Source: Candidatus Tepidifontimicrobium thermophilum
Lineage (GTDB): Bacteria > Sysuimicrobiota > Sysuimicrobiia > Sysuimicrobiales > Sysuimicrobiaceae
Length of the DNA: 64,000 bases
Direction of reading: 5' to 3'
NCBI GenBank assembly: GCA_031459915.1
Contig: JAVKHO010000007.1
Coordinates: 56,389-120,388, forward strand
A program made the position numbers and the translations under genes. Every line of letters begins with the position of its first letter. Position 1 is the stretch's first letter. The notes beneath the pieces were generated by a model. It was not told the origin of the DNA. It saw nothing but the letters and a program-made list of their open reading frames with translations, and searched no databases. Positions 5,761 to 37,296 of the stretch are shown here, piece by piece.

Positions 5761-6546
5761 GTGGCCATCCTGGTCACCCGGCGGATGACCAAGCGGTTCG
5801 GCGGGCTGGTGGCCATCCGGGCCCTGGACCTGGAGGTGGAGGAGCGGGCGATCCACAGCGTCATCGGCCCCAACGGGGCGGGTAAAACCACCCTGTTCAA
5901 CTGCGTCACGGGGTTCTACCGCCCCGACGAGGGCGAGATCTGGTTTGCCGGCCAACGGGTGGACGGCCTGCGGCCGGACGAGATCGCGCACCTCGGGGTC
6001 GCCCGTACCTACCAGAACATCCGCCTCTTCGCCAACATGACGGCCCTGGAGAACGTGCTGGTAGGGCTGCACATGCACCTGCGGTCCACCTGGGTGGGCG
6101 CGGTGCTGGCCAGCCCCGCGGTGCGTCGGGAGGAACGGTGGGCCCACGCGGAGGCCCGGCGGCTGTTGGAATTCGTGGGGCTCGCCGGCCGGGGGGATCT
6201 GCTGGCCCGCAACCTGCCGTACGGGGAGCAGCGAAAGCTGGAGCTGGCCCGGGCGTTAGCCACCCGGCCCAAGCTCCTGCTGCTGGACGAGCCCACCGCA
6301 GGCATGAACCCCGCGGAGACCGCGGAGATGATCCAGTTCATCCGGCGCTTGCGGGACGAGCTGGGGATCACCATTCTGCTCATCGAGCACCACATGCGGG
6401 TGGTGATGACCATCTCGGACCGGGTGACGGTGCTGGACTACGGGGAAAAGATCTCCGAGGGCACACCCGAGCAGGTGCAGAACGACCCGCGGGTCATCGA
6501 GGCGTACCTGGGCACCCGGAAGGTCAAGGCGGAAGCCCTCGGATAA
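5761..6546 (+). CDS. livG: Branched-chain amino acid ABC transporter ATPase
   Basis: GPNGAGKTT, LPYGEQRKLE, LLLLDEP, C-terminal VIEAYLG. Confidence 0.92.
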   Translation: MAILVTRRMTKRFGGLVAIRALDLEVEERAIHSVIGPNGAGKTTLFNCVTGFYRPDEGEIWFAGQRVDGLRPDEIAHLGVARTYQNIRLFANMTALENVLVGLHMHLRSTWVGAVLASPAVRREERWAHAEARRLLEFVGLAGRGDLLARNLPYGEQRKLELARALATRPKLLLLDEPTAGMNPAETAEMIQFIRRLRDELGITILLIEHHMRVVMTISDRVTVLDYGEKISEGTPEQVQNDPRVIEAYLGTRKVKAEALG

Positions 6547-6552
6547 AAGACC

Positions 6553-7263
<711 letters not shown>

Positions 7264-25002: not shown

Positions 25003-25679
25003 AGACGGTCCTGGTCCTGGCCCCTCACCCCGACGACGCGGAGATCGCCATGGGTGGTACCATGGCCGCGCTGGTGGCGCAGGGCTGGCGGGTGGTGGTG
25101 TGCGACCTCACCGATGGCGAGCCCACCCCGGTGGGCACGCCGGAGCGGCGGCGGCGGGAGGCGGAACGGGCGGCGCGGATTCTCGGCGTGGAGCGCCAGA
25201 TCCTGGACCTGCCCAACCGTTTCCTGCTGGACGGGGTGGAGGCGCGCAAGAAGGTGGCTGCGGTGATCCGGGCGGTGCGGCCCGAGTGGCTGTTCGTGCC
25301 GTACTGGGAGGACGCCCACCCCGACCACGTCCAGGCCGCCACCCTGTGTGAGGCGGCGCGGTTCTACGCCAAGCTGACCCACACGGACATCCCGGGGGAG
25401 CCCCACTACCCGCGCCGGGTCGTGCACTTCTTCTCCACCCACTACCGCATGGTGCGGCGGCCGTCCTTCGTGTTCGACGTGAGCGAGACGCTGGAGCGCA
25501 AGATGGAGAGCCTGCGCGCGTACGAGAGCCAGTTCGGAGTTGAGCGGGGCAACTCCTGGGTCCTGGAGGCGGTGCGGGATGCCGCCCGCTACTTCGGTTC
25601 CCTGGTGGGCGTCTCGTACGGGGAGCCCTTCCTCCTGCGGGAGGAGCTCGGGGTGCGGAACCTGGAGGGGTTAGTGTGA
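24999..25679 (+). CDS. PIG-L family deacetylase, BshB1-like
   Basis: APHPDDAE, DLTDGE, DAHPDH, AYESQF, YGEPF. Confidence 0.88.
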   Translation: MKTVLVLAPHPDDAEIAMGGTMAALVAQGWRVVVCDLTDGEPTPVGTPERRRREAERAARILGVERQILDLPNRFLLDGVEARKKVAAVIRAVRPEWLFVPYWEDAHPDHVQAATLCEAARFYAKLTHTDIPGEPHYPRRVVHFFSTHYRMVRRPSFVFDVSETLERKMESLRAYESQFGVERGNSWVLEAVRDAARYFGSLVGVSYGEPFLLREELGVRNLEGLV

Positions 25680-27220
25680 CCGACGTGACCGAGCTGTCCA
25701 TCCCCACGCGCCACGGCGAGGTCCTCTGCACGCCTGAGTTCAGCCGTTGGCTGGAGCTGGCGGAAGCCACCGCCCGGCGGCTGGACGCAGCAAGCGTCTT
25801 CGGCCGGCCCCTGAGCGCTCTGCGGGCGCAGGCCCGGTCCGAGCTCGTGGGACGGGCCCAGGCCCTGCTGGGCCGCTGGGGCTTCGCGCCCCCTGAGGCC
25901 TCCCACGGTCCGTGGGTCGCCACCGGCCACCAGCCCGGCCTGTATCACCCGGGGATCTGGATCAAGACGTGGGCCGTGGACATCTGCGCGGGCCAGGGGG
26001 CGACCGGGCTGCACGTGGTGGTGGACTCCGACGAGTGCCAGTCCTGGGGTGCCCGAGTCCCGAGGCGGGACGGGACGCTGCAGGGGGTGCAGCGGACCCT
26101 CGTGGAGTGCGGCGACGGTGTTCCCTTCGAGGCGGCCCCGGTACCCGAGGAGGCCCGCTGGCGGGCCTTCTGCGCACAGCTACGGGACGACCTCGGGACC
26201 CTCGGTCTCCCGGAGCTCCTGGAGCGGGTCTCCCGGGCAGAGCAGGCGGGCCTGGAAAGCCTCTCCCGCGCGCGGCACCTGGGCGATTTCGGGGCCGGCC
26301 TGCGCAGACGGTTGGAGACGAAGCACCGGCAGGTCCGCTACTGGGAGGTGACCGTATCCGAGCTGTCGGAGACGCAGGCCTTCGGCCAGTTCGCCGCCTG
26401 GATCGCCCAGGATGCGGAGCGTTTTCGCGCCTGCCACAACGCGGCCCTGGACGAGTACCGCCGGCAGCAGGGCCTGCGCTCCCCGGCGCAGCCGTTCCCC
26501 AACCTACGGCGGGAAGGCGACTGGGTGGAGTTGCCCTTCTGGCTGGTGCGGGAGGGGAAGCGGCGGCCGGTATTCGTGCGGCCCGGAGCTCCTCCCGTGG
26601 TGTTCTGCGAGGGCAGGCCCGTAGGCGAGCTCACGGACCGTGGGCTGGAGGGCCTGCGCCCCAGGGCCCTCACCCTCACCCTGTTCCTGCGGCTTCTGGT
26701 GGCGGATCTGTTCGTGCACGGCGTGGGAGGCGCGCGCTACGACCGCGTCACCGACCGGGTCCTAGAGGAGTTCTTCGGAGTCACACCGCCGCCCTTCGCG
26801 GTCCTCACGGCCACCTTCCATCTCCCGCTGGCGCGACACGCAGATCCCCGGGAGGCGTACGGGGCTGCGCAGCGTCTGTGGCTGGACCTGCAGCACAACC
26901 CGGACCGCCACCTGGCCGACCCCGCCCAGGCGCGTCCCCTGGTGGAGGAAAAGTGGCGCTGCATCCGGGCTCTGGAGGCCGCGGACCTGACCCGGTCCGC
27001 CCGCCGGGAGCTCGCCCGGCGCATCCGGGCCATCAACGAGGCTTTGCGGGCCCACGTGCAGGACCGGATCGCTGAAGTGGAGGCGGAGCTGGAGGCGTTG
27101 CGGCGGGAGGTGCAGGAACACGAGGTCGCCGCGGACCGAGGCTACCCCTTCTTCCTGTTCGACCCCGAGGAGGTCTGCGCGCCGTTGCGGGCGCAGGAGG
27201 GAGTTCGGTGCGGCCGCTAG
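25676..27220 (+). CDS. Hypothetical protein, distantly BshC-like (putative ligase) with C-terminal coiled coil
   Basis: ATGHQPGLYHPGIWIK resembles the BshC TGQQ/H-x-LF-G-P-Y-K motif; LRPRAL...FVHGVGGARYD; ~510 aa like BshC. Confidence 0.55.
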   Translation: MTDVTELSIPTRHGEVLCTPEFSRWLELAEATARRLDAASVFGRPLSALRAQARSELVGRAQALLGRWGFAPPEASHGPWVATGHQPGLYHPGIWIKTWAVDICAGQGATGLHVVVDSDECQSWGARVPRRDGTLQGVQRTLVECGDGVPFEAAPVPEEARWRAFCAQLRDDLGTLGLPELLERVSRAEQAGLESLSRARHLGDFGAGLRRRLETKHRQVRYWEVTVSELSETQAFGQFAAWIAQDAERFRACHNAALDEYRRQQGLRSPAQPFPNLRREGDWVELPFWLVREGKRRPVFVRPGAPPVVFCEGRPVGELTDRGLEGLRPRALTLTLFLRLLVADLFVHGVGGARYDRVTDRVLEEFFGVTPPPFAVLTATFHLPLARHADPREAYGAAQRLWLDLQHNPDRHLADPAQARPLVEEKWRCIRALEAADLTRSARRELARRIRAINEALRAHVQDRIAEVEAELEALRREVQEHEVAADRGYPFFLFDPEEVCAPLRAQEGVRCGR

Positions 27221-27888
27221 ACCCCGTGGTGACGGACGCCCTGGGCCGGCGGTTCGGGGCCGTGGTGGCCCTGCGGGGCGTGGGACTCCGGGTCGGGGAG
27301 GGCACGTGTCTGCTGCTGTTGGGCCCCAACGGGTCCGGCAAGACCACCCTGCTTCGGGTGCTGGCCACGGCCTTGCGCCCTACGGAGGGCCGCGCGTGGG
27401 TGTGCGGCTACGACGTGGTCTCGGAGGGTCACCGGGTGCGGGAACTGTGCGCTTTCCTGGGGACGTCCCCAGGCGTGTACGCGGGCCTCACCGGGTTCGA
27501 GAACCTGTGCCTGGCCGCGGACCTGTGTGGCCGGCCCCGGCGGCAGGTTGCGGAGCTGCTGGGGTGGGCCGGGCTGGAGCAGGTGGCCCACAGGCTGGTA
27601 CGCACTTACAGCCTCGGCATGCGGCGGCGGCTCGCCCTGGCGCGGGTCCGTTTGCAAGAGCCCCGGGTCCTGCTCTTGGACGAGCCCTTCGTGGGTCTGG
27701 ACGAGGAGGGGACCCGGCTGGTGGGCGAGCTGGTGACGGGGATCAAGAAGCAGAAAGGCGCGGTGGTCCTGGCCACCCACGACCGGCACCGCGCCCGGGC
27801 CGTGTGCGACGCGGTGGCAGAACTGGAGTCGGGCACGCTGCTGAGCTCGGGAACCGCGGGGCTCGCAGGAGCAGTGAGCCGGGGATGA
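27208..27888 (+). CDS. ccmA: Heme ABC exporter ATPase CcmA
   Basis: GPNGSGKTT, YSLGMRRRL, LLLDEPF; ccm context. Confidence 0.85.
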   Translation: MRPLDPVVTDALGRRFGAVVALRGVGLRVGEGTCLLLLGPNGSGKTTLLRVLATALRPTEGRAWVCGYDVVSEGHRVRELCAFLGTSPGVYAGLTGFENLCLAADLCGRPRRQVAELLGWAGLEQVAHRLVRTYSLGMRRRLALARVRLQEPRVLLLDEPFVGLDEEGTRLVGELVTGIKKQKGAVVLATHDRHRARAVCDAVAELESGTLLSSGTAGLAGAVSRG

Positions 27889-28538
27889 AGGCATGGCGGC
27901 GGGTGGCGGCCGTGGCCCGCAAGGACCTTCTCCTGGAGTGGCGCGGGCGCGACGCGGTGCTCCCCGCGGGCAGCTTCGGCTTCGCAGTCCTGCTGGTGCT
28001 AGGGCTGGTGTCCGGAGGTGGGGGGGAAGCCGCACCGTCGGCGCTGTGGGTGTCCGTCCTCCTGGCGGCAGTGCTGGCGGCAGGACGCGGTGCGGACCGG
28101 GAAGGAGAGGAGGGGACCCGGGAGGTGCTGCTGCTGTACCCCGGCAGCCGCGAGGACCTGTTCTGGGGAAGGTGGCTGGCTCTGTGCGTGGTGCTGCTGG
28201 TCCTGGCTGCGGGACTGTGGTGCGCGCAGGTTCTCCTGTTTGACGCTCCAACCCGCGGGGCGGGCGTGCTGATCCTGGCGGCCCTGTTGGCTACAGCGGG
28301 GCTCGGCGCGGCGGGCACGTTGCTGGCCGCGCTGGTGGCCCACGTGCGGGCAGGACCGTTGCTGATGCCCCTTCTGTTCCTGCCCGCCACGGTTCCCGTG
28401 TTGCTGGCGGGAGTGCGGCTTTCCGAGACCGCGGCCTCCGGAGCGCCTGCGGGCCCGTGGTGGGGCGTGCTGGTGGTGTTCGACCTCCTGTTTTTGCTGG
28501 TGGGCCCCGTCCTGTTCGAGCTGGTGGTGGAGGGGTAG
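27885..28538 (+). CDS. ccmB: Heme exporter permease CcmB
   Basis: RKDLLLEWR, LMPLLFLPATVPVLLAGV; multiple TMs. Confidence 0.85.
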   Translation: MKAWRRVAAVARKDLLLEWRGRDAVLPAGSFGFAVLLVLGLVSGGGGEAAPSALWVSVLLAAVLAAGRGADREGEEGTREVLLLYPGSREDLFWGRWLALCVVLLVLAAGLWCAQVLLFDAPTRGAGVLILAALLATAGLGAAGTLLAALVAHVRAGPLLMPLLFLPATVPVLLAGVRLSETAASGAPAGPWWGVLVVFDLLFLLVGPVLFELVVEG

Positions 28539-28540
28539 GC

Positions 28541-29179
28541 TTGCGGGCGTTCGCGGTGGGAGGGACTGCGGCGCTGTTGAGCGTGGGCCTGTTCCTGGCC
28601 CTGTGGGGCTCCCCCCCGGACGCCTACCAGGGCGAGTACGTACGGATCATGTACGTGCACGTCCCTGCGGCGGTAAGCGCCTACGGGGCCGCCGCGGTGG
28701 CCTTCGGGGCTGGTGCCCTGTACCTGTGGCGGCGCGACCGGCGGTGGGACTTCGTCGGGCGCGCGGGCGCGGAGCTAGCGGCCCTGTTCTCCGGGCTGAC
28801 CCTCCTCACCGGGATGCTCTGGGGAAAGCCCGTGTGGGGCGTGTGGTGGGCGTGGGACGCCCGGCTGGTCACCACCGCGGTGCTGTTCCTGCTGTACGTG
28901 GGCTGCCTGCTGGTCCGAGATCTCGCGGACGACCCCGAGCGGGGCCGGAGGCTGTCCGCGGCGGTGGCGGTGCTGGCCTTCCTGGACGTGCCGGTGGTCC
29001 ACTACTCGGTGGTGTGGTTCCGGACCCTGCACCAGGGCCCGTCCATCAGCCTGCAGGGTGTGAAGTTGGCGCCGGAGTTCCTCCTGCCGCTGGCGGTGAA
29101 CGCCGTGGCCTACCTGGCCCTGCTGAGTGTGCTGCTGGCCGAACGGGCGCGCCTCGCGAGTCTGGAGGGGGAACGTTGA
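28541..29179 (+). CDS. ccmC: Heme chaperone-loading protein CcmC
   Basis: RIMYVHVP, WGKPVWGVWWAWDARL (WWD motif), SVVWFRTLHQ. Confidence 0.93.
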   Translation: MRAFAVGGTAALLSVGLFLALWGSPPDAYQGEYVRIMYVHVPAAVSAYGAAAVAFGAGALYLWRRDRRWDFVGRAGAELAALFSGLTLLTGMLWGKPVWGVWWAWDARLVTTAVLFLLYVGCLLVRDLADDPERGRRLSAAVAVLAFLDVPVVHYSVVWFRTLHQGPSISLQGVKLAPEFLLPLAVNAVAYLALLSVLLAERARLASLEGER

Positions 29180-29304
29180 GCCCCTGGGCGTGGGTACTAA
29201 CCGCGTACGGCTGCGCCGCCCTGCTGGTGGGCGTTTACGCCTGGCGCCTGTGGCGCCGCTTGCGGCAGGTGTCCAGGGCCAGGCTGGGAGAGGGGGAGAC
29301 GTGA
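29176..29304 (+). CDS. ccmD: CcmD-like small membrane protein (42 aa)
   Basis: MSPWAWVLTAYG...LWRRLR; overlaps both the ccmC stop and the ccmE start. Confidence 0.75.
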   Translation: MSPWAWVLTAYGCAALLVGVYAWRLWRRLRQVSRARLGEGET

Positions 29305-29711
29305 AGCGCCTACGGCTTGCTGCCGCGGTGTTGCTGGTGGTGGGTTCCCTGGGCTACGTGGTGGCCGGCGGGCTCCGGGAGGCGGTGGTGTACTACGTGA
29401 CGCCCACGGAGCTGCAGTCCAGGACCCTGGACCCCCGACGGCCGGTGCGGGTCGGCGGACAGGTAGTACCCGGCTCCCTCCGGCGAGAGGGCGGTGCGCT
29501 GCGCTTCGTGCTGTCCGACGGGCAGGCCCGGCTGCCGGTGCGGTTTGCGGGCAGCGTGGAGGGGCTGCTGGTGGAAGGGCAGGGCGCGGTGGTGGAAGGC
29601 CGGCTGGGGCCGGACGGAACCCTGGAGGCCCGCAGCGTGGTGGTGAAGCACTCGGAGGAGTACACTCCACCCCGCTCTCCGTTGCCACCCGCGGAGCGGA
29701 ACGCGCCCTGA
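29301..29711 (+). CDS. ccmE: Heme chaperone CcmE (His-type)
   Basis: YYVTPTEL, RVGGQV, EGQGAVVEG, KHSEEY (H-x3-Y). Confidence 0.92.
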   Translation: MKRLRLAAAVLLVVGSLGYVVAGGLREAVVYYVTPTELQSRTLDPRRPVRVGGQVVPGSLRREGGALRFVLSDGQARLPVRFAGSVEGLLVEGQGAVVEGRLGPDGTLEARSVVVKHSEEYTPPRSPLPPAERNAP

Positions 29712-29901
29712 GCCAGCGCGGCTGGCCCGGCGTCCACGGACCGGAAGCGCTTGACGGGCTCGGATCGGGGCACGGAAAATCGTGGCCGGACCTTCACGGA
29801 GGGGGCCGAGAGGCTCCCTCTTTGCGTGTGCAGGCCGAAGAGGAGTCCGGGCATCGGAAGTCAAAAAGACACGCCAGCTCATTTTTGATTCGGGAGGCAG
29901 G

Positions 29902-30804
29902 TTGCACCGACGGCAAGCCGGACCCCTGTGCGGCCGGCGGCCCCGCGGGGGGGCCGGCGGGTTGTTGCTGCTGGTGGCGGCGATTCTCGGCCTCGCGGGC
30001 TGCCAGCCGTACGTCGGGGTGAGCACCCCCGCCAGGGAGGCCTACCAGCCCCTGGAAGGGTTCGTGGTGCGCATGAACTTCATGCCCCGCAAGCCCAGCG
30101 CGGACGAGGGCCGCAAGATCTACGAGGCGCGCTGCGCGGTGTGCCACGGGCCCGAGGGCCGTGGGGACGGCCCCATGGCGGAGCAGCTGACCGCTCCGGA
30201 GAAAAACCCGTACACGGACTTCTTGAGCCTGTTCCGCATCCACCCCAAGACCGAGCCGCTGCCGAGTCGGCCCGCCCGCTTCAACAACCTGGACCAGATG
30301 CGGTTGAACGCGCCGTTCGCCCTGTTCGAGACTATCGCCCGGGGCCGGCCCCACACTGCCATGCCCGGCTTCCAGCATCCCGCCTACGGTGCCGTGGATG
30401 GGGGTGATCCGCGCCTTACGGACGAACAGATCTGGGACGTGCTGTTCTGGGAGTGGAGCCGGACCACGAGCCGGGACCGGCTGGCACAGGGAAGGCGGAT
30501 CTACAACCAGCTGTGCGCCAGCTGCCACGGGGTGGCGGGCGACGGGAACGGTCCCGAGGCCGCCCGGATCCGCGAGCAGGTGTGGACGTGGGCGCGGGGT
30601 GTGGGGCCGGGGATCTTCACGGACCGGGACTGGATGGCCTACCGGAAGCCCACGGAGCTGTACCAGAAGATCGCGGAGGGAGTGCAGCGGCGCGGGCTGG
30701 AGCTCATGCCCGCCTACGCGGGCAAGCTCTCGGCGGACCAGATCTGGAGCGTGGTAGAGTACCTGTGGACGTTCGTGTACACGCCGCCGCAGGACCTGCG
30801 CTAG
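29902..30804 (+). CDS. Diheme c-type cytochrome, probable lipoprotein
   Basis: Lipobox LAGC; CAVCH and CASCH, each with a distal MP motif; TTG start after GGGAGG (uncertain). Confidence 0.85.
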   Translation: MHRRQAGPLCGRRPRGGAGGLLLLVAAILGLAGCQPYVGVSTPAREAYQPLEGFVVRMNFMPRKPSADEGRKIYEARCAVCHGPEGRGDGPMAEQLTAPEKNPYTDFLSLFRIHPKTEPLPSRPARFNNLDQMRLNAPFALFETIARGRPHTAMPGFQHPAYGAVDGGDPRLTDEQIWDVLFWEWSRTTSRDRLAQGRRIYNQLCASCHGVAGDGNGPEAARIREQVWTWARGVGPGIFTDRDWMAYRKPTELYQKIAEGVQRRGLELMPAYAGKLSADQIWSVVEYLWTFVYTPPQDLR

Positions 30805-30832
30805 CTGCGGGTGCGGCAACGGAGGCGGGGCT

Positions 30833-31477
30833 GTGAACCGTCGGACGTTCCTCAAGGCGCTGAGTGCGGTGCCGGTGCTGGGGGGTCTCGGCGCCTTCCT
30901 GGCGCCGGTGCTGCGCTACCTGAAGCCGAACCTGGAGCCGGGGCTGGGGGTTCCCCAGGGGAAGGTGCCCCCGGACCTCGCGGAGGGGGACCTCCCGAAG
31001 GGGGAGCCGCTCCCCATCGCCACCCTGGAGGAGCTGCGCGAGCCCTGGTCCAGCAAGTTCTTCGTGTTCACCCAGAAGTACCCGCAGTACACGCCGGAGC
31101 TGGCCAAGGCGGCCACGGTCCCCGGGGTGGCCATCAAGCTGCCGTGGAAGTTGAGCTTCCCCGGCTACAAGGCCGGGAAGGAGCCCACGGACATCGTGGT
31201 GTTCTCCCGCATCTGCCCGCACCTGGGCTGCATCTTCAACTACGTGCCGAACTGGCGGGAGGTCACGGCGGGCTACGGCGGGTACGTGCCGCCGGAGGAA
31301 CGTCGCCACGGCCTCATGGCCTGCCCCTGCCACCTGTCCATCTACGACCCCGCGGACCGGGAGGTGCCCGGCCGGGTGCTGTCGGGACCCGCGCCCCGGC
31401 CCCCCCGCTACTTCACCTACGAGATCCGCGACGGGGTCATCGTGGTGACGGGCGCCGAGCCCGGCGGGATCGCCTAG
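30833..31477 (+). CDS. Rieske [2Fe-2S] subunit of a Rieske/cytochrome b complex
   Basis: Tat signal NRRTFLK; CPHLGC and CPCHLS boxes; GPAPRP. Confidence 0.93.
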   Translation: MNRRTFLKALSAVPVLGGLGAFLAPVLRYLKPNLEPGLGVPQGKVPPDLAEGDLPKGEPLPIATLEELREPWSSKFFVFTQKYPQYTPELAKAATVPGVAIKLPWKLSFPGYKAGKEPTDIVVFSRICPHLGCIFNYVPNWREVTAGYGGYVPPEERRHGLMACPCHLSIYDPADREVPGRVLSGPAPRPPRYFTYEIRDGVIVVTGAEPGGIA

Positions 31478-31489
31478 GGAGCCGGAGCG

Positions 31490-32638
31490 ATGTGGGACCG
31501 GTTGCGGGAGTGGTTCCGGGAGCGCAAGGAGAAGCTGGACCTTTTCGACGAGACCCAGGTCGACCGCCAGGACAACCCCCTCTACCTCCTCGGTCAGATC
31601 GTGTACTTCGCGTGGATCGCGGTGGTGGTGAGCGGGATCCTGCTCATGATCTGGTACGAGCCCACCACCCACGGCGCCTACAACTCCATCCTCCGCATCC
31701 AGCACGAGGTCCCCTTGGGCTGGCTGATCCGCGGGGTGCACAAGTACGGCGCGGACATGCTGATCCTCGCCATCACCCTGCGCATCTACCGGATGTACTT
31801 CCTGGGCGAGTACAAGCGGCCCAACGAGCTGTCGTGGATGATCCTGTTCGGCTCCCTGGTGCTGGCCATGATCTCCGGCCTCACGGGGTACCTGCTGATC
31901 TGGAACCAGCGGGCCTTCTGGGCGGCGAAGGTAGTCCTCACGGTGGCGGTGTACCTGGATGAGCTGCCCCTCATCGGGCAGACGCGGTTCGGCAGCGCCA
32001 TCGCCTTCGCCTTCCTGGGTGGGCCCGCGGAAGGGCAGGGGACTCTCACGCGCTTCTACGCCATCCACTTCGGCATCTCGGCCCTGCTGCTGGTGGCGGC
32101 GGAGATCTACTTCTACTTCACCCGGCGGCGCCGGTTCGTGTTGTCCCCCACCGCTTTGGTGATCCTGGCCCTCATGCTGGTGGTCACCAGCTACGTGTTC
32201 CCCGCGGAGATGGGCCGGCGGGCCGACCCCAACCGGACGCCGCTCCCGATCCTTTCCGACTGGTACTTCCTGGCGCTGTACCAGTACGTGAAGTACACCC
32301 CGCCCCTGTGGGCCGGGCTGGGGCCGGGTCTGCTGATCGCGTACGGGATGCTGGTGCCGTTCCTCGACCGCAGTAAGGGCCGCAGGCCGTCCGAGCGCCC
32401 CTTCTTCACCGTGGTGGGAATTATGGCCCTGACCTACTTCCTGGTGTTCACCGCTCTCATCATGTTCAACATCGCCGTGATCGGGAGGGACCCGCACGTG
32501 GTCCTGCTGGTCACCGCCGCCACCCTGGGTCTGGGCCTGGTGTTGGAGTTCCGTTACCGCCGGCGGAGGAAGCTCGCAGAGGCCGCCGCGCCGGCCCCGG
32601 CGCCGCGGGCCGCGCCGGCCCGGGCGACGGTGGGGTGA
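31490..32638 (+). CDS. Cytochrome b (b6 + subunit IV-like fused), only the bL His pair retained
   Basis: GWLIRGVH, TGYLLIWNQ, LTRFYAIH, SDWYF; Arg and Tyr at the second His positions. Confidence 0.88.
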   Translation: MWDRLREWFRERKEKLDLFDETQVDRQDNPLYLLGQIVYFAWIAVVVSGILLMIWYEPTTHGAYNSILRIQHEVPLGWLIRGVHKYGADMLILAITLRIYRMYFLGEYKRPNELSWMILFGSLVLAMISGLTGYLLIWNQRAFWAAKVVLTVAVYLDELPLIGQTRFGSAIAFAFLGGPAEGQGTLTRFYAIHFGISALLLVAAEIYFYFTRRRRFVLSPTALVILALMLVVTSYVFPAEMGRRADPNRTPLPILSDWYFLALYQYVKYTPPLWAGLGPGLLIAYGMLVPFLDRSKGRRPSERPFFTVVGIMALTYFLVFTALIMFNIAVIGRDPHVVLLVTAATLGLGLVLEFRYRRRRKLAEAAAPAPAPRAAPARATVG

Positions 32639-32642
32639 GGCG

Positions 32643-32906
32643 GTGGAGGCGGTCCGGTTCGGGATGGCTTTCGGCCTGGCGGTAGCAGGCCTGCACGGCA
32701 CCTGGCAGGCGGCGCGCCTGGCGTGGGTACAGCCCCAGCCGGAGCGGTGGCTTGTGGCGGCCGGGTGGCTGGCGGTGCTGGTGGTCTCGGCCGCGTGGGC
32801 GGGCTACCTGCTGTACGCCGCGGACCGCCGGGCGGGCCGGGTGCGTCGACGGGTCGCGGTGTACGAGCGCTGGCTGGCTTTCCAGCGAGGCGGGAGGTGG
32901 GCGTGA
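32643..32906 (+). CDS. Small 2-TM hypothetical protein
   Basis: SD GAGG, two hydrophobic segments, overlaps the next gene. Confidence 0.65.
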   Translation: MEAVRFGMAFGLAVAGLHGTWQAARLAWVQPQPERWLVAAGWLAVLVVSAAWAGYLLYAADRRAGRVRRRVAVYERWLAFQRGGRWA

Positions 32907-33106
32907 GGGAGCCAGAGCGCGGCGGCTGGTACCTGGCGGTGGCGGGCTTTCTGGCGGTACTGGCCCTGGCGTGCGTCGGCCTGATGGTGTACGGGGAGTG
33001 GTTCGACCGGCGCCTGGTGGCCTCGGGAGCCGTGGGCGTGCTGCTGGTGCTGTACGCCGTCATCGTGGTGCTGTTCCGCAAGGCGCACCTCACCGCGGAG
33101 GACTAG
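32903..33106 (+). CDS. Small 2-TM hypothetical protein
   Basis: GTG after GGGAGG, GTGA overlap; WYLAVAGFLAVLALA...VLLVLYAVIVVLF. Confidence 0.7.
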   Translation: MREPERGGWYLAVAGFLAVLALACVGLMVYGEWFDRRLVASGAVGVLLVLYAVIVVLFRKAHLTAED

Positions 33107-33107
33107 G

Positions 33108-34283
33108 GTGTACCGGCGGTTGTTGCTGAGCCTGCAGAGTGCCACCCTGCGGTTGGACACCTGGATCAACCGCGTCCTGCCGCAGGACTTCAACCCCCTG
33201 TACTACACCGGGGGGCTGTCGAACCTGTTCCTCACCATCCTGGTGGTGTCGGGGATCCTCATCTTCCTGTACTACGAGCCGAGCCTGGAGGGCGCCTACG
33301 CCTCGGTGGAGTTCCTCACCCGCGACGTGCCCTACGGGGTCGTGTTCCGCGGGATCCACCGCTACGCCGCGGACGCGTACCTGGTGGCCATCCTCCTGCA
33401 CCTGTTCCGGAACTGGTTCACGGACCGCTACCGGGAGGCCCGGGACAGCCAGTGGCTGTCGGGGATGTTCCTGCTGGTGGTGTCGGGCTTCGCGGGCTTC
33501 ACCGGCTACCTGTTGGTGTGGGACGAGCGGTCGCAGCTGCTGACGAGCCTCACGGTACAGGCCCTGAGGTCCGTCCCCCTGGTGGGAGACCGGCTCGCCC
33601 GGGTATTCCTGGGGGGCCCCGGGGTGAGCGACACCACCCTGCCGCGGTTCCTGTTCCTCCACGTGGGGCCCGCCATGACCCTGTACGTACTCCTGTGGTG
33701 GCACTACGTGCGCCTCCGCCACCCCAAGATCTGGCCCCCCTCCGTGTGGGTGCTGTTCAGCCTGGGCCTGCTGTTCATCCTCGCTTCCGCCTTGCCCGCC
33801 ACGAGCGGACGGCCGGCGCAGCCGGGCGCCTCGCCGGAGGGGTTCGCGGTGGACTGGTTCTTCCTGTGGCCGTACGTGCTGGCCCGCTGGCTGGCGCCCG
33901 GTTGGGCCCTGGCCCTGGTGGTGGCCCTGGTGGCATACGGCATGGTGGTCCCCTACACCCTGCGGGAGACTCCGGAGCAGCGGGGCGTCCGGGCCTTGGG
34001 CCAGGCGGTGGTGGTGGAGGAGAACTGCACGGGCTGCGAGCTGTGCTACTACGACTGCCCGTACAACGCCATCTACATGGTGCCGAGCCCGTACCCGGGG
34101 AAGAGCCGGGCTGCGGCCAACCGGAAGCTGCTGGCAGTGGTGGTGGACTCCCGGTGCGTGGAGTGCGGGATCTGTATCGGCGCCTGCCCCTTCGAGGCCC
34201 TGGAGTTGCCGAGGATGCTGGACAAGGACGTACAGCAGCGCATCCAGCGGGGCGCACGCGCCGCGGCCCCGGTGGGTTCCTGA
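33108..34283 (+). CDS. Cytochrome b fused to C-terminal 2[4Fe-4S] ferredoxin
   Basis: RGIHRY..LLHLFR and FLHV..WWHY (all four His); CTGCELCYYDCP and CVECGICIGACP. Confidence 0.9.
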   Translation: MYRRLLLSLQSATLRLDTWINRVLPQDFNPLYYTGGLSNLFLTILVVSGILIFLYYEPSLEGAYASVEFLTRDVPYGVVFRGIHRYAADAYLVAILLHLFRNWFTDRYREARDSQWLSGMFLLVVSGFAGFTGYLLVWDERSQLLTSLTVQALRSVPLVGDRLARVFLGGPGVSDTTLPRFLFLHVGPAMTLYVLLWWHYVRLRHPKIWPPSVWVLFSLGLLFILASALPATSGRPAQPGASPEGFAVDWFFLWPYVLARWLAPGWALALVVALVAYGMVVPYTLRETPEQRGVRALGQAVVVEENCTGCELCYYDCPYNAIYMVPSPYPGKSRAAANRKLLAVVVDSRCVECGICIGACPFEALELPRMLDKDVQQRIQRGARAAAPVGS

Positions 34284-34293
34284 GGCGAGAGCC

Positions 34294-34725
34294 ATGGCGA
34301 CGGTACCGGATCGGACCCCGCAGGCGGAGGAGGCAGCCCCCCGGGTCGTGGGGTTCCTGTGCGACTGGGCGGTACGCAGCGAGGGGCTCCTGAGCGCCGA
34401 CGACACCCTGGTAGGCATGCCGCATGTCACGGTGATCCGGGTCCCCTGCTCAGGGTTCGTCAAGCCCGGGTGGTTGGAGCTGGCGCTGCGCAGCGGCGCC
34501 GCGGGCGCCTTCGTGTGCGGTTGCCCCATGGGGGACTGCCTCAACCGGGAAGGCAACTGGATCATGGAGGATCGCATCGACCAGCTGCGGAAGCGTTTGA
34601 GCCGGCAGAAGGTGGACCCTGAGCGGGTCGCGTTCTTCGCCTTCGGCCTGCACGAGCGGGAGGACTTCCTGCGCGCGGTGGCGGAGTTCGTGGACCGGGT
34701 GCGCGGATCCGGAGGGAAGCGGTGA
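34294..34725 (+). CDS. MvhD/FlpD-family [2Fe-2S] protein
   Basis: VVGFLCDW, IRVPCSG, GCPMGDC..REGN, VDPERV. Confidence 0.85.
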   Translation: MATVPDRTPQAEEAAPRVVGFLCDWAVRSEGLLSADDTLVGMPHVTVIRVPCSGFVKPGWLELALRSGAAGAFVCGCPMGDCLNREGNWIMEDRIDQLRKRLSRQKVDPERVAFFAFGLHEREDFLRAVAEFVDRVRGSGGKR

Positions 34726-34838
34726 CGCGGTTTGGCCCGAAACGGTGGAAGACGTACCTGTGGTACGCCCTGTTCTACCTGGTGTTCTTTGCCCTGTTGC
34801 TGTTCGTGGCGGCCTTCGGTCTGGTGGCGGAGGCGTAG
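34722..34838 (+). CDS. 38-aa single-TM peptide (not in the ORF track)
   Basis: MTRFGPKRWKTYLWYALFYLVFFALLLFVAAFGLVAEA; GGAGGG SD, GTGA overlap with the mvhD-like stop. Confidence 0.7.
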   Translation: MTRFGPKRWKTYLWYALFYLVFFALLLFVAAFGLVAEA

Positions 34839-34853
34839 CGGAAGGGACACGGG

Positions 34854-36248
34854 ATGCTGGCGTGGATGTTCACCGACGAGCGATGGAGCTCCGTCCGGCG
34901 GTTCCTGTACGCGGGCGCGCTGTGGGGGATCCTGGCGCTGGCCTACGAGGCGCTGGCCGCCGCGCAGCGGGCCTGGCCGCAGGTCCTCGCGGACGTCCCC
35001 TGGGTGTCCCACGGGCGGGTGGTGGCCACCGGACAGGACCTGTGGGTGTTCGGTTTCCTGTCCCACCTCCTGGTGGGCGCGGCGCTGCGGGTGGTGGGAC
35101 AGGGCGACCGGGAGGGGCTGTGGAGCGAGCCCCTCGCGAACCTGAGCCTGTGGCTGTGGACTGTGGCGCAGGTGCTCAGCTGGTGGTGGATCTCCACGGG
35201 CTGGACCCGAGGCCGACCGCTCGGTGAGGCTCCCTGGCCGGTGGACCTGCTCCGGCTAGCGGGCGCGCTGCTTCTGTTGTGGGTGGTTCGCAACACGCTC
35301 GTCCGATCTCCCCGTAGGGACCCCGCGCTGGCCCTGGTGTTCGCGGGCTTCACCGGGCTGCCTCTGGTCCTAGTACTGGGGAAGGGCTTGTTCTGGCCCT
35401 TCGACAACCCCTACCACGGGATCCTGGACGCTCTGAGCCAGGCGTTCCTGCGGGCAGGCCTGGTCTGGCTATGGGGGGTCCCGCTGGCCGGTGGGGTCTG
35501 CCTGTACGTCCTGTCGGCCCTGACCGGCCGGCGCGGGCTTTCGGAGGGAGTGGGCTTCGCCGCCCTGTTCGGCCTGGTCAGTTTCGGGGCTCTCGCTGGG
35601 CCCGCGGAGTTCGTGTGGGGTCCGGTGCCGTTCTGGGTGCAGACCGTGGGCGCTGTGGCGCAGGGGCTGCTGGTGTTGCCGGTGGCGACGCTGCTCGTGG
35701 GTGCCGCGCGGTCGCTGGAAGGGCACTGGCAGTCCCTCGGGGACCACCCCGGTGTGGTCTTCGTGCTGGCGGGCTGGCTGGCGCTGACCTCCGGCGTGTC
35801 TTTGAGCGCGCTGGCGTCCCTCGTGGGTCCCAGCCGCGTGGTGCACCTCTCCCTGTGGGGAGAGGGGGTGCGGGTTCTGGTGCTGGGCGGCTGTGCCGCG
35901 GTGGCCGTGGGGTGTGCGTACCTGCTGACGCCACACGTGCTGGGACGCTCGCTAGCGAGCCGGGCCCTGGCCTGGCGGCATCTGTGGCTGGTGGTGGTGG
36001 CGTGGGCGCTCTCTGCGCCCGCGCTGCTGCTGGCGGGTCTGAGCCAGGGTGCGGCTTGGGCCACGGGCACGGTGCCCTTCGCTCACGCGGTACAGGCCAG
36101 CCGGCCCCTGCTGGCCGTGGCCTGGGCCGCGGCTCTGCTGGTGTGGGTCGGCCAGGCGGTGTTCGCGTGGAACCTGTTCTTGACCTCAGACTCCGGGGAA
36201 CCGGTTCCCGCAGCGGAGCAGGAGCTCCTGCCGGTGGCGGGGTCTTAG
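34854..36248 (+). CDS. cbb3-type oxidase subunit I (CcoN)-like protein lacking metal ligands
   Basis: ~12 TM; GR, GWTRGRPLGEAPWPVD, GPVPFWVQT and GLSQG..W align with CcoN; followed by a CcoO-like gene. Confidence 0.75.
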   Translation: MLAWMFTDERWSSVRRFLYAGALWGILALAYEALAAAQRAWPQVLADVPWVSHGRVVATGQDLWVFGFLSHLLVGAALRVVGQGDREGLWSEPLANLSLWLWTVAQVLSWWWISTGWTRGRPLGEAPWPVDLLRLAGALLLLWVVRNTLVRSPRRDPALALVFAGFTGLPLVLVLGKGLFWPFDNPYHGILDALSQAFLRAGLVWLWGVPLAGGVCLYVLSALTGRRGLSEGVGFAALFGLVSFGALAGPAEFVWGPVPFWVQTVGAVAQGLLVLPVATLLVGAARSLEGHWQSLGDHPGVVFVLAGWLALTSGVSLSALASLVGPSRVVHLSLWGEGVRVLVLGGCAAVAVGCAYLLTPHVLGRSLASRALAWRHLWLVVVAWALSAPALLLAGLSQGAAWATGTVPFAHAVQASRPLLAVAWAAALLVWVGQAVFAWNLFLTSDSGEPVPAAEQELLPVAGS

Positions 36249-36283: not shown

Positions 36284-36742
36284 GTGAGGGATGCCGTGGG
36301 AGCTGTAGGGCGGCTGGTGGTGGCCGCGGTGGTGTGCGGGTTTGTGGTGACCGCCCTCCTGCCCGCCCTAGATCCTGCGGTCCGGACCGCGCGGGCGGCG
36401 CCCCTGTCAGCCCAGGCGGCGCGGGGGCGGTGGGTGTACGTGAGGGAGGGGTGTGTGGTCTGCCACACCCAGCAGGTGCGAGGGGTGGAGGCCCGGTTCG
36501 GCGTGGTGCGCGCGCCGGGTGACGTGGGGCAGGCTTCAACTGCGGAGCAGTACTCCGGTCAGGACCCCGTGCTGCTGGGTCGGCTGCGCCTAGGGCCGGA
36601 CCTGTCAAGGGTAGGGGCGCGTACCTCGGGACAGGAATTGCGGACGGCGCTGCTGTCGGGCACGGGGGGCATGCCCTCGTACCGGTACCTCTCGGACGCG
36701 GAGCTGGCTGACCTGGTGGCGTACCTGCTGGCGCTGCGGTAG
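36284..36742 (+). CDS. cbb3-type subunit II (CcoO/FixO)-like monoheme cytochrome c
   Basis: GRWVYVREGCVVCHTQQVR, GPDLSRVGAR, MPSY. Confidence 0.85.
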   Translation: MRDAVGAVGRLVVAAVVCGFVVTALLPALDPAVRTARAAPLSAQAARGRWVYVREGCVVCHTQQVRGVEARFGVVRAPGDVGQASTAEQYSGQDPVLLGRLRLGPDLSRVGARTSGQELRTALLSGTGGMPSYRYLSDAELADLVAYLLALR

Positions 36743-36750
36743 GAGGCGAC

Positions 36751-37296
36751 ATGGGAAACGAAACGACCACCGCGAGGCCTTCCCGCTGGCTGCTGGCGCT
36801 GTACGTGCTGCTGCCTTTGTGGGCCCTGGCGTACCTGTTCGTGGCGGGTGGGCTGGTGCAGCCGGAAATCAGGCCGGTGGCGCGGAACGTGGAGGGTGTT
36901 TCTGCAGGCACCGCCGCGGCGCCGGACGGCTCCGAGCACGTGATGGGCATCCTGGCGGTGGTCCCGGAGGACGCCAGGGACGACCAGCCCCCGCGTCCGG
37001 TGACGGACGCCATGCTGGCCCAGGCGAAGGCCCAGTACGACACCCTGTGCGCGGTGTGCCACGGACCCGAGGGACGCGGGGACGGCCCCGCGGGCGCGGC
37101 CCTGAACCCGAAACCCCTCAACTTCCACTTCCGGGCCTTTCAGGAACGGATGCCGGTGGGCGCTACCCACTGGGTGATCAAGAACGGCCTGGGCAACACT
37201 CCCCGCCGCAGCGGGATGCCGGCCTTCGGCCAGCTACCGGACGACCAGATCTGGGCCCTGGTGGAGTACGTCCGGCGGCTGGGCCGCCAGCCATGA
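36751..37296 (+). CDS. Membrane-anchored monoheme cytochrome c
   Basis: N-terminal TM, CAVCH, SGMPAF, QIWALVEY. Confidence 0.88.
   Translation: MGNETTTARPSRWLLALYVLLPLWALAYLFVAGGLVQPEIRPVARNVEGVSAGTAAAPDGSEHVMGILAVVPEDARDDQPPRPVTDAMLAQAKAQYDTLCAVCHGPEGRGDGPAGAALNPKPLNFHFRAFQERMPVGATHWVIKNGLGNTPRRSGMPAFGQLPDDQIWALVEYVRRLGRQP

Follow-up and report, generated by a model that had tools for sequence, protein, structure and literature searches.

A conserved cytochrome b lacking both canonical heme bH ligands, and its four-histidine paralogue, in an operon of Sysuimicrobiota

Cytochrome bc1 and b6f complexes are homodimers in which each monomer carries a Qo site, hemes bL and bH, and a Qi site (PMC7908018), and cytochrome b is treated as having four invariant heme histidines. 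The two bL hemes of the known dimers lie within transfer distance of each other, a bridge that cross-inactivated enzymes proved (PMC7908018); engineered bc1 dimers of Rhodobacter capsulatus of this kind force the transfer from bL to bL (PMC7908018). A 2021 review considered the physiological meaning of inter-monomer transfer unclear, since each half of the dimer is complete (PMC7908018).

Cytochromes b that depart from this plan have been described. The PDWF-FeS clade of Kao and Hunte (2014) has 4Fe-4S and MvhD domains together with an xDWF motif (PMC4122944). In Pyrobaculum cytochrome b, only the fourth histidine is lost and the protein is otherwise intact (PMC4122944), and the short proteins of cyanobacterial subfamily K have one helix 2 histidine replaced by Glu or Gln (PMC5600118); the portions of these two sources available to us describe no complementary partner for either. 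Dibrova et al. (2017) placed their clade G′ in large operons of unknown function (PMC5600118), and a combination of complexes III and IV has been reported from Melainabacteria, where it was annotated as b6f (PMC6349859). In the anammox bacterium Kuenenia stuttgartiensis, the complexes use menaquinone, their Rieske protein is of high potential, and a cytoplasmic Fe-S chain has been proposed to receive the low-potential electron; the published models are homodimers that contain hemes bP, bN and cN and include an NAD(P) oxidoreductase subunit (PMC12954380).

Here we analyze a 64,000-nucleotide stretch of DNA from Candidatus Tepidifontimicrobium thermophilum (the window), which encodes two cytochromes b, b1 and b2. 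With the bc1 and b6f complexes (PDB 6rqf, 1q90 and 8smr), b1 shares the fold, the Rieske and cytochrome c partners, the bL ligands and the cd1 and ef segments. Unlike those complexes, b1 has no bH ligands, which breaks the four-histidine rule, b2 has no conserved Qo site, and neither has heme ci or the Lys-Asp segment of the Qi site. The Rhodobacter capsulatus construct reportedly pairs a monomer without a working low-potential exit with another without Qo, both being fusions of one gene; b1 and b2, if they form a heterodimer, would be a natural two-gene version of it with an added Fe-S exit. The features of the operon are as follows.

29782..30804, plus strand: membrane-anchored diheme cytochrome c; two CxxCH motifs; Pfam Cytochrom_C / Cytochrome_CBB3 matches in two stretches
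30833..31477, plus strand: Rieske [2Fe-2S] protein with a Tat signal; motifs CPHLGC and CPCHLSIY
31490..32638, plus strand: cytochrome b1, 382 aa; intact ORF, helices A-H, bL ligands and conserved Qo segments
31781..31783, plus strand: codon (CGC) of b1 Arg98, at the helix B bH-ligand position
32102..32110, plus strand: b1 Glu205 to Tyr207; Tyr207 (TAC, 32108) is at the helix D bH-ligand position
32255..32266, plus strand: Qo motif SDWY of b1, residues 256-259
32643..32906, plus strand: small membrane ORF s1 of 87 aa, without an assigned family; many relatives show weak matches in the corresponding position
32903..33106, plus strand: small membrane ORF s2 of 67 aa with two hydrophobic segments, without an assigned family
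33108..34283, plus strand: cytochrome b2; four His, VDWF motif; helix F is followed by a terminal 2[4Fe-4S] domain
34294..34725, plus strand: MvhD/FlpD-like [2Fe-2S] protein; match to the HdrA2 model; four-Cys pattern
34722..34838, plus strand: single-helix ORF, 38 aa, CcoQ/CcoH-like by position
34854..36248, plus strand: homologue of CcoN (cbb3 oxidase subunit I) that has lost the heme and copper His ligands
36284..36742, plus strand: CcoO-like monoheme cytochrome c
36751..37296, plus strand: monoheme cytochrome c

The Rieske and c-type cytochrome genes of a canonical complex are thus both present. Of the best 80 of 222 genome loci, 77 have a Rieske gene before b1 (two of the three without one are truncated), and the diheme cytochrome c gene, whose true start is probably downstream of 29782, is conserved upstream of the Rieske gene in relatives. 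Genes for heme and cytochrome c maturation, named from their translations, precede the operon. The ccmA-E-like genes among them (27208-29711) come without ccmF, which is on another contig, and loci L044, L046 and L067 have a ccmF-sized ORF between ccmE and the cytochrome c gene. Also among the heme and ccm genes is a 514-aa ORF (25676-27220, plus strand) with no Pfam match over the cut-off; a glycosyltransferase gene and a deacetylase-like ORF precede it. RNA data gave seven raw reads, and contigs from the RNA library cover the flanks equally. At the downstream end, none of the six CcoN His ligands to the hemes and CuB is present in the window gene or in nine close loci; the ligands are intact in Melainabacteria and other loci, and Symbiobacterium locus L096 has a partly degenerate set. 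The ligand-less CcoN is likely a scaffold for the CcoO-like cytochrome.

The residues of b1 had been called correctly in an earlier sequence-only reading. In the intact ORF, the bL ligands are His84 (CAC, 31739) and His193 (CAC, 32066), and the two canonical bH histidines are absent, Arg98 and Tyr207 each standing 14 codons past a retained bL histidine; the Qo motif is SDWY, and there is no heme ci Cys. The translation has no His between residues 194 and 335 and no Cys anywhere in the protein. The best solved match of b1 is cytochrome b6 (E 4.5e-34), and in an alignment that is gapless through helix B, Arg98 pairs with b6 His100 and Leu33 with the heme ci Cys35. Pfam scores are 102.9 bits for PF00033 and 32.1 bits for PF00032, over cut-offs of 27.2 and 20.7, and every Foldseek match of the AlphaFold2 model is a cytochrome b (mean pLDDT 60 and pTM 0.53, adequate for the fold family alone). 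The cd1 helix of a Q-cycling cytochrome b, WNQRA(F/Y)W, is present together with the Qo motif. The marks of the b6f type are missing, with Leu33 in b1, Tyr33 in b2 and no CxGG Cys, and both proteins are fused long forms. Sequencing error is ruled out by agreeing contigs of two other public runs (X6 record 28568-34441 and X10 record 31354-33481), which span codons 98 and 207; the listed differences lie elsewhere.

We followed the conservation of b1 in a protein alignment (the query with the best 120 of 922 homologues, at 65-95% identity) and in the best 80 of 222 genome loci, which were retrieved with patterns from the b1 cd1 segment. His84, Arg98 and His193 occur in 121/121 aligned proteins (query plus best 120 of 922), and His occupies position 207 in none of them. 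Among the best 80 of 222 loci, His84 and His193 are kept in all 80, and 79 have Arg at position 98, the remaining one Lys. At position 207, the same loci have Phe (40), Tyr (24), Leu (9), His (4), Met (1) or Trp (1), with one truncated; Glu205 is found in all 79 that reach its position, as is SDWY in all 79 that reach the motif. An index-free HMMER search added 15 distant, full-length, b1-like proteins (P0243-P0251, P0253-P0257 and P0259), all with Arg98 and Glu205, five of which retain the helix D bH histidine. Because position 98 is almost constant and position 207 varies, the fixed event is the change from His to Arg in helix B, and the helix D histidine at 207 is a relic, by now mostly lost. 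The sequence-only reading had raised the question whether both ligand changes are conserved under purifying selection among orthologues. For selection and for Arg98 the answer is yes; Tyr207, by contrast, is variable and incidental, and His persists there in 4 of the 79 loci (best 80 of 222).

The dN/dS of b1 against eight close relatives is 0.046-0.151, not above that of the neighboring cytochrome b, and relatives use all six Arg codons at position 98. Together with the loss of a helix C glycine described below, this upholds the earlier view of selected specialization over decay, and strain-specific decay is ruled out by the dN/dS values and the conserved Arg98. A conserved swap of His to Tyr, or ligation by Tyr, is likewise ruled out, because position 207 varies. 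A salt bridge between Arg98 and Glu205 that would fill the pocket was also considered; helical arithmetic places Glu205 about 200 degrees from position 207. Glu205 (32102-32104) stands two residues before the lost histidine, where b2 has a near-invariant Trp, and is possibly at the dimer cavity. Judged from its sequence, b1 is a real, conserved and functionally meaningful cytochrome b homologue that has neither the full set of four histidines nor the Qi segment.

The b1 family spans Sysuimicrobiota (the closest members, at 90-95% identity), Symbiobacterium, Fimbriimonadaceae, Anaerolineae and Melainabacteria; within the window's phylum, 52 of the 60 genomes sampled carry b1. Six of the eight genomes without it belong to one genus (G015, G020, G032, G053, G054 and G055, with no b1 found), and three of those six carry a different cytochrome b, with four histidines where its residues were read.

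The sequence-only reading had taken b1 for a monomer, overlooking the second cytochrome b gene 470 bases downstream. In the best 80 of 222 loci, b2 follows b1 in 70; nine of the 10 misses end at most 213 bases past b1, so b2 is found in 70 of the 71 loci with enough downstream DNA. The four histidines of b2 (33357, 33399, 33660 and 33702) and the eight Cys of its 2[4Fe-4S] tail (34026-34056 and 34155-34185) occur in 121/121 b2 proteins (query plus best 120 of 406), and His98 and His199 are kept in 68/68 loci (best 80 of 222). Its Qo region is degenerate, with VDWF as the motif and without the cd1 aromatic-Trp pair, and Tyr33 stands in place of the heme ci Cys. On the n side, the conserved residues are Arg204, His205, Pro206 and Trp197/198. 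MvhD follows b2 in 66/66 loci with DNA beyond b2 and has the four-Cys pattern in 62 of these 66, three of the misses being truncated or masked (best 80 of 222 loci). On the HdrA2 model, the b2 tail matches positions 571-639 and MvhD positions 642-769, a contiguous C-terminal stretch. The small ORFs s1 and s2 (32643-33106) lie between b1 and b2, and b2 has no helices G and H; as a speculation, s1 and s2 might replace them. One locus, L066, has an orphan b1 (5980-7203, plus strand; 66% identity, Arg98); no Rieske gene precedes it, and the 921 bases that follow it contain no b2.

The losses of b1 and b2 mirror each other. In 20 loci of less than 80% identity, we counted alignment columns that were at least 95% conserved. 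The end of helix C with cd1 has 17/25 such columns in b1 versus 6/25 in b2, and the ef loop 12/28 versus 0/28, whereas the end of helix D has 2/20 in b1 versus 6/20 in b2. Mean pairwise identity is 0.78 (b1) and 0.40 (b2) in the Qo segments and 0.50 and 0.59, respectively, in the n-side segments. The cd1 conservation of b1 is partly circular, because the loci were retrieved by b1 cd1 patterns; the ef-loop contrast and the variability of b2 are unaffected by this. An aromatic/Leu-Trp pair in cd1 occurs in 13/13 b1, 0/11 b2 and 17/24 outgroup proteins. Conversely, the helix C glycine that packs heme bH (Gly119) occurs in 7/80 b1 and 68/68 b2 (best 80 of 222 loci) and in 23/24 outgroups. With its highly conserved cd1 and ef segments, b1 has sequence-level support as the Qo-only, single-heme protein that had been proposed.

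The two proteins are 33% identical, aligning without gaps through helices A-C and D-E. Their helix D histidine positions are 14 residues apart, versus 15 in the nearest outgroups, and the third His is separated from the Qo Trp by 65-76 residues in b1 and 65-68 in b2, versus 82-145 in 23/24 outgroups. The D-E linker is about 20 residues shorter in both. The deleted piece holds (F/Y)P-x4-KD, which aligns with HPYYTVKD of solved bc1, so the Qi Lys-Asp segment is gone from b1 and b2 alike; no acidic residue is found in that region in 62/69 b2 (best 80 of 222 loci). We take the KD of this segment to be the position of bovine Asp228. Asp228 is named as a Qi-site residue (PMC7908018). Trees of 48 proteins and 273 columns separate b1 and b2 from the 24 outgroups with SH-aLRT support of 96 (LG+G4) or 93 (mixture model, quick search); an N-domain-only FastTree, from which three fragmentary rows were dropped, gave 0.41. 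On these alignments and trees, b1 and b2 are sister paralogues that share two deletions. The simplest reading, for a tree whose root position is not fixed, would be a duplication followed by a division of labor.

The two genes are the only PF00033 matches in the 96%-complete genome, and the MvhD family has a single match. The Rieske/cytochrome b complex encoded by the operon is the only one of the genome, and it is also the complex III of aerobic Melainabacteria. menB scores over its cut-off, and the futalosine marker PF02621 was not found in the genome. The high-potential signature of the Rieske protein is kept, as Ser in 77/77 and Tyr in 68/77 (best 80 of 222 loci). For the anammox complexes, it has been argued that menaquinone paired with a high-potential Rieske protein lets bL reach a potential low enough for NAD(P) reduction (PMC12954380), and from the motifs we infer that the b1/b2/Rieske set would combine a high-potential Rieske center with a bL of very low potential. 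The genome also has three further strong, intact-scoring COX1-family (heme-copper oxidase) matches, five 2-oxoacid:ferredoxin oxidoreductase matches and three NrfD matches that are candidates for alternative complex III; no CxxCH motif occurs at the NrfD loci in the plus-strand frames examined. A Pfam search for Rieske proteins found five other matches and gives no count, because it missed the window's own Rieske gene.

From these features we propose an electron path. It would start from sister paralogues whose mirror-image losses are seen in their sequences. Menaquinol would be oxidized at a single Qo site, in b1, releasing two protons outside, and one electron would pass through the Rieske protein and the diheme cytochrome c to a terminal oxidase. 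Because b1 has no bH, the second electron, on bL, would have no way across the membrane within b1; by the bL-bL bridge of known dimers, it would move from bL of b1 to bL and then bH of b2. We consider it probable that b1 and b2 form a heterodimer that works in this way. In the last and weakest step, the electron would leave bH of b2 through the 2[4Fe-4S] tail and MvhD to a cytoplasmic acceptor encoded elsewhere, with no completion of a Q-cycle. We propose this exit because neither paralogue has heme ci or the segment of a canonical Qi site. The standard topology of cytochrome b puts the end after helix F on the cytoplasmic side, so the Fe-S tail of b2 would be cytoplasmic. No partner dehydrogenase or reductase, nor any other cytoplasmic acceptor, lies beside MvhD in the 13 loci inspected downstream. 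For the whole path, heterodimer and Fe-S exit together, our estimate is about 0.45; menaquinone with the Ser and Tyr of the Rieske protein, the bL bridge and the Fe-S tail favor it over four alternatives. Somewhat more tentatively, and at less than even odds, the complex would be an asymmetric complex III with obligatory transfer from bL to bL, in which quinone-based bifurcation replaces the Q-cycle and makes a low-potential cytoplasmic reductant. Oxygen respiration would then drive one electron of menaquinol uphill through b1, b2 and the HdrA-like arm.

Complex prediction for b1 and b2 with three hemes scored 0.60, versus 0.00 for the best of three controls, with at least 94% of contacts agreeing between runs and a partner pLDDT of at least 74. 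Of the solved complexes, 116 of 157 attained the mark used, as did 2 of 215 mismatches; at scores of 0.60 or below, only 18 solved complexes attained it, together with both mismatches. Likeness to the solved bc1 and b6f dimers could explain the score, which does not set the heterodimer apart from homodimers, because only b1 with b2 was modeled and neither b1-b1 nor b2-b2. The predicted complex thus weakly supports a heterodimer.

The same heterodimer might instead run a Q-cycle, with Qo in b1 and a remodeled Qi site in b2, the 2[4Fe-4S]/MvhD arm storing an electron or bringing a second one from a cytoplasmic donor, much as heme ci and ferredoxin have been proposed to do in b6f. The conserved n-side residues of b2 could form such a site: Arg202, Arg204, His205 and Pro206 occur in 119-121 of 121 close homologues (query plus best 120 of 406), and an Arg five residues past the last histidine is found in 12/20 diverse loci, at the offset of b6 Arg207, which contacts a Qn-site inhibitor (PMC7908018). 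A Q-cycle would also pay in an aerobe that has three heme-copper oxidase matches and these as its sole cytochromes b. Yet the Qi Lys-Asp segment is deleted, b2 has no heme ci Cys, and 17/68 loci (best 80 of 222) have Arg or Ala in place of His205, so that we regard a Q-cycle as unlikely, if deserving of serious weight. If the pair is a heterodimer, its low-potential branch might also run outward, from a donor through MvhD, 2[4Fe-4S], bH and bL of b2 to bL of b1, either to reduce quinone at Qo or to feed the cytochrome c chain. The counterpart of this arm, the C-terminal module of HdrA2, delivers hydrogenase electrons to HdrA, and the five 2-oxoacid:ferredoxin oxidoreductase matches in the genome fit such a flow. 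By our reasoning, however, it would spend membrane potential rather than build it, and the Rieske protein and the Qo segments resemble a standard bifurcating site; there is little chance that the branch runs this way.

Hardly better placed is a b1 that works without b2, as a monomer or homodimer, in a quinol:cytochrome c oxidoreductase without Q-cycling whose bL holds its electron briefly, b2 and MvhD being a separate transmembrane conduit in the same operon. It would fit the orphan b1 of L066, which, having neither Rieske nor b2 beside it, speaks against our preferred path; it would also fit the prediction score of 0.60, which is weak, and the Fe-S-fused cytochromes b described in other complexes (PMC4122944). 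Linkage in 70/71 loci (best 80 of 222), shared origin and mirror-image losses argue against it, as does the lack of an exit for the bL electron inside a b1 without bH. Moreover, b2 keeps its bL ligands despite a decayed Qo region, which implies that its bL needs another electron partner. We find an independent b1 improbable. Least probable is a second heme in b1 held by non-His ligands (Tyr207 or Glu205), or a decaying or mis-sequenced gene. Glu205 is indeed in 79/79 loci and His stands at 207 in four (best 80 of 222), but 207 is mostly Phe or Leu, 98 is always Arg or Lys and the packing glycine is lost in the same set of loci, and b1 has bulky Tyr/Trp39 and Trp42; against decay or error stand the dN/dS of 0.046-0.151 and the agreement of independent contigs.

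Returning to the path with the Fe-S exit, its parts can be set beside the systems described. By description, rather than by tree placement with the Magnetospirillum and Turneriella sequences, b2 resembles the PDWF-FeS clade, in which MvhD is fused, whereas here it is the next gene. No bH-less partner is mentioned for that clade in the portion of the source available (PMC4122944), a point against the preferred path. The same survey dropped sequences missing any of the four histidines (PMC4122944), which placed b1 outside it, and its main text contains no SDWY motif. Compared with the Kuenenia stuttgartiensis complexes, a b1/b2 dimer would be asymmetric, and its operon has no acceptor enzyme. 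The Melainabacteria operon for complexes III and IV is orthologous, with cbb3 oxidase, cytochrome c, Rieske, b1, b2 and MvhD genes at L100, L103, L105-L109 and L111; its CcoN is intact, whereas that of the window is ligand-less and downstream. Soo et al. (2017) are said to have noted two cytochrome bc-related proteins in it. The b1/b2 operon may correspond to the clade G′ that Dibrova et al. (2017) described. The four text supplements of PMC5600118 do not mention Symbiobacterium, Melainabacteria, Armatimon, Obscuribacter or STH, and the accessible parts of PMC6349859 and PMC5600118 mention neither heme loss nor a heterodimer for the Melainabacteria operon or clade G′. Two papers on the window's phylum do not discuss the complex in the parts available (PMC11604079 and PMC11962464). 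Our literature search found no description of a bH-less subunit or of b1/b2 pairing, though other key papers and figure supplements may mention histidine loss. The Melainabacteria operon and Fe-S-fused cytochrome b are thus already published, while the heme loss and the pairing are apparently undescribed.

If the heterodimer is real, neither half of the pair is complete by itself. Inter-monomer transfer would then be indispensable and open to direct test, and the pair would illustrate how a gene duplication can assign the Qo reaction to one protein and the transmembrane wire to the other. Should electrons leave by the Fe-S arm, an unrecognized route from quinol to cytoplasmic reductant would exist among aerobes of several phyla. 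The annotation of complex III in Sysuimicrobiota and Melainabacteria changes, being neither b6f nor ordinary bc1, and this bears on arguments over respiration in the relatives of cyanobacteria. A few other cytochromes b (P0357, P0360, P0341 and P0268) carry Arg or Gln where helix B would supply the bH ligand; P0268 forms, with P0259, deep b1-like branches, and P0357 is placed with the outgroups and no longer has the Qo acid, which suggests an independent loss.
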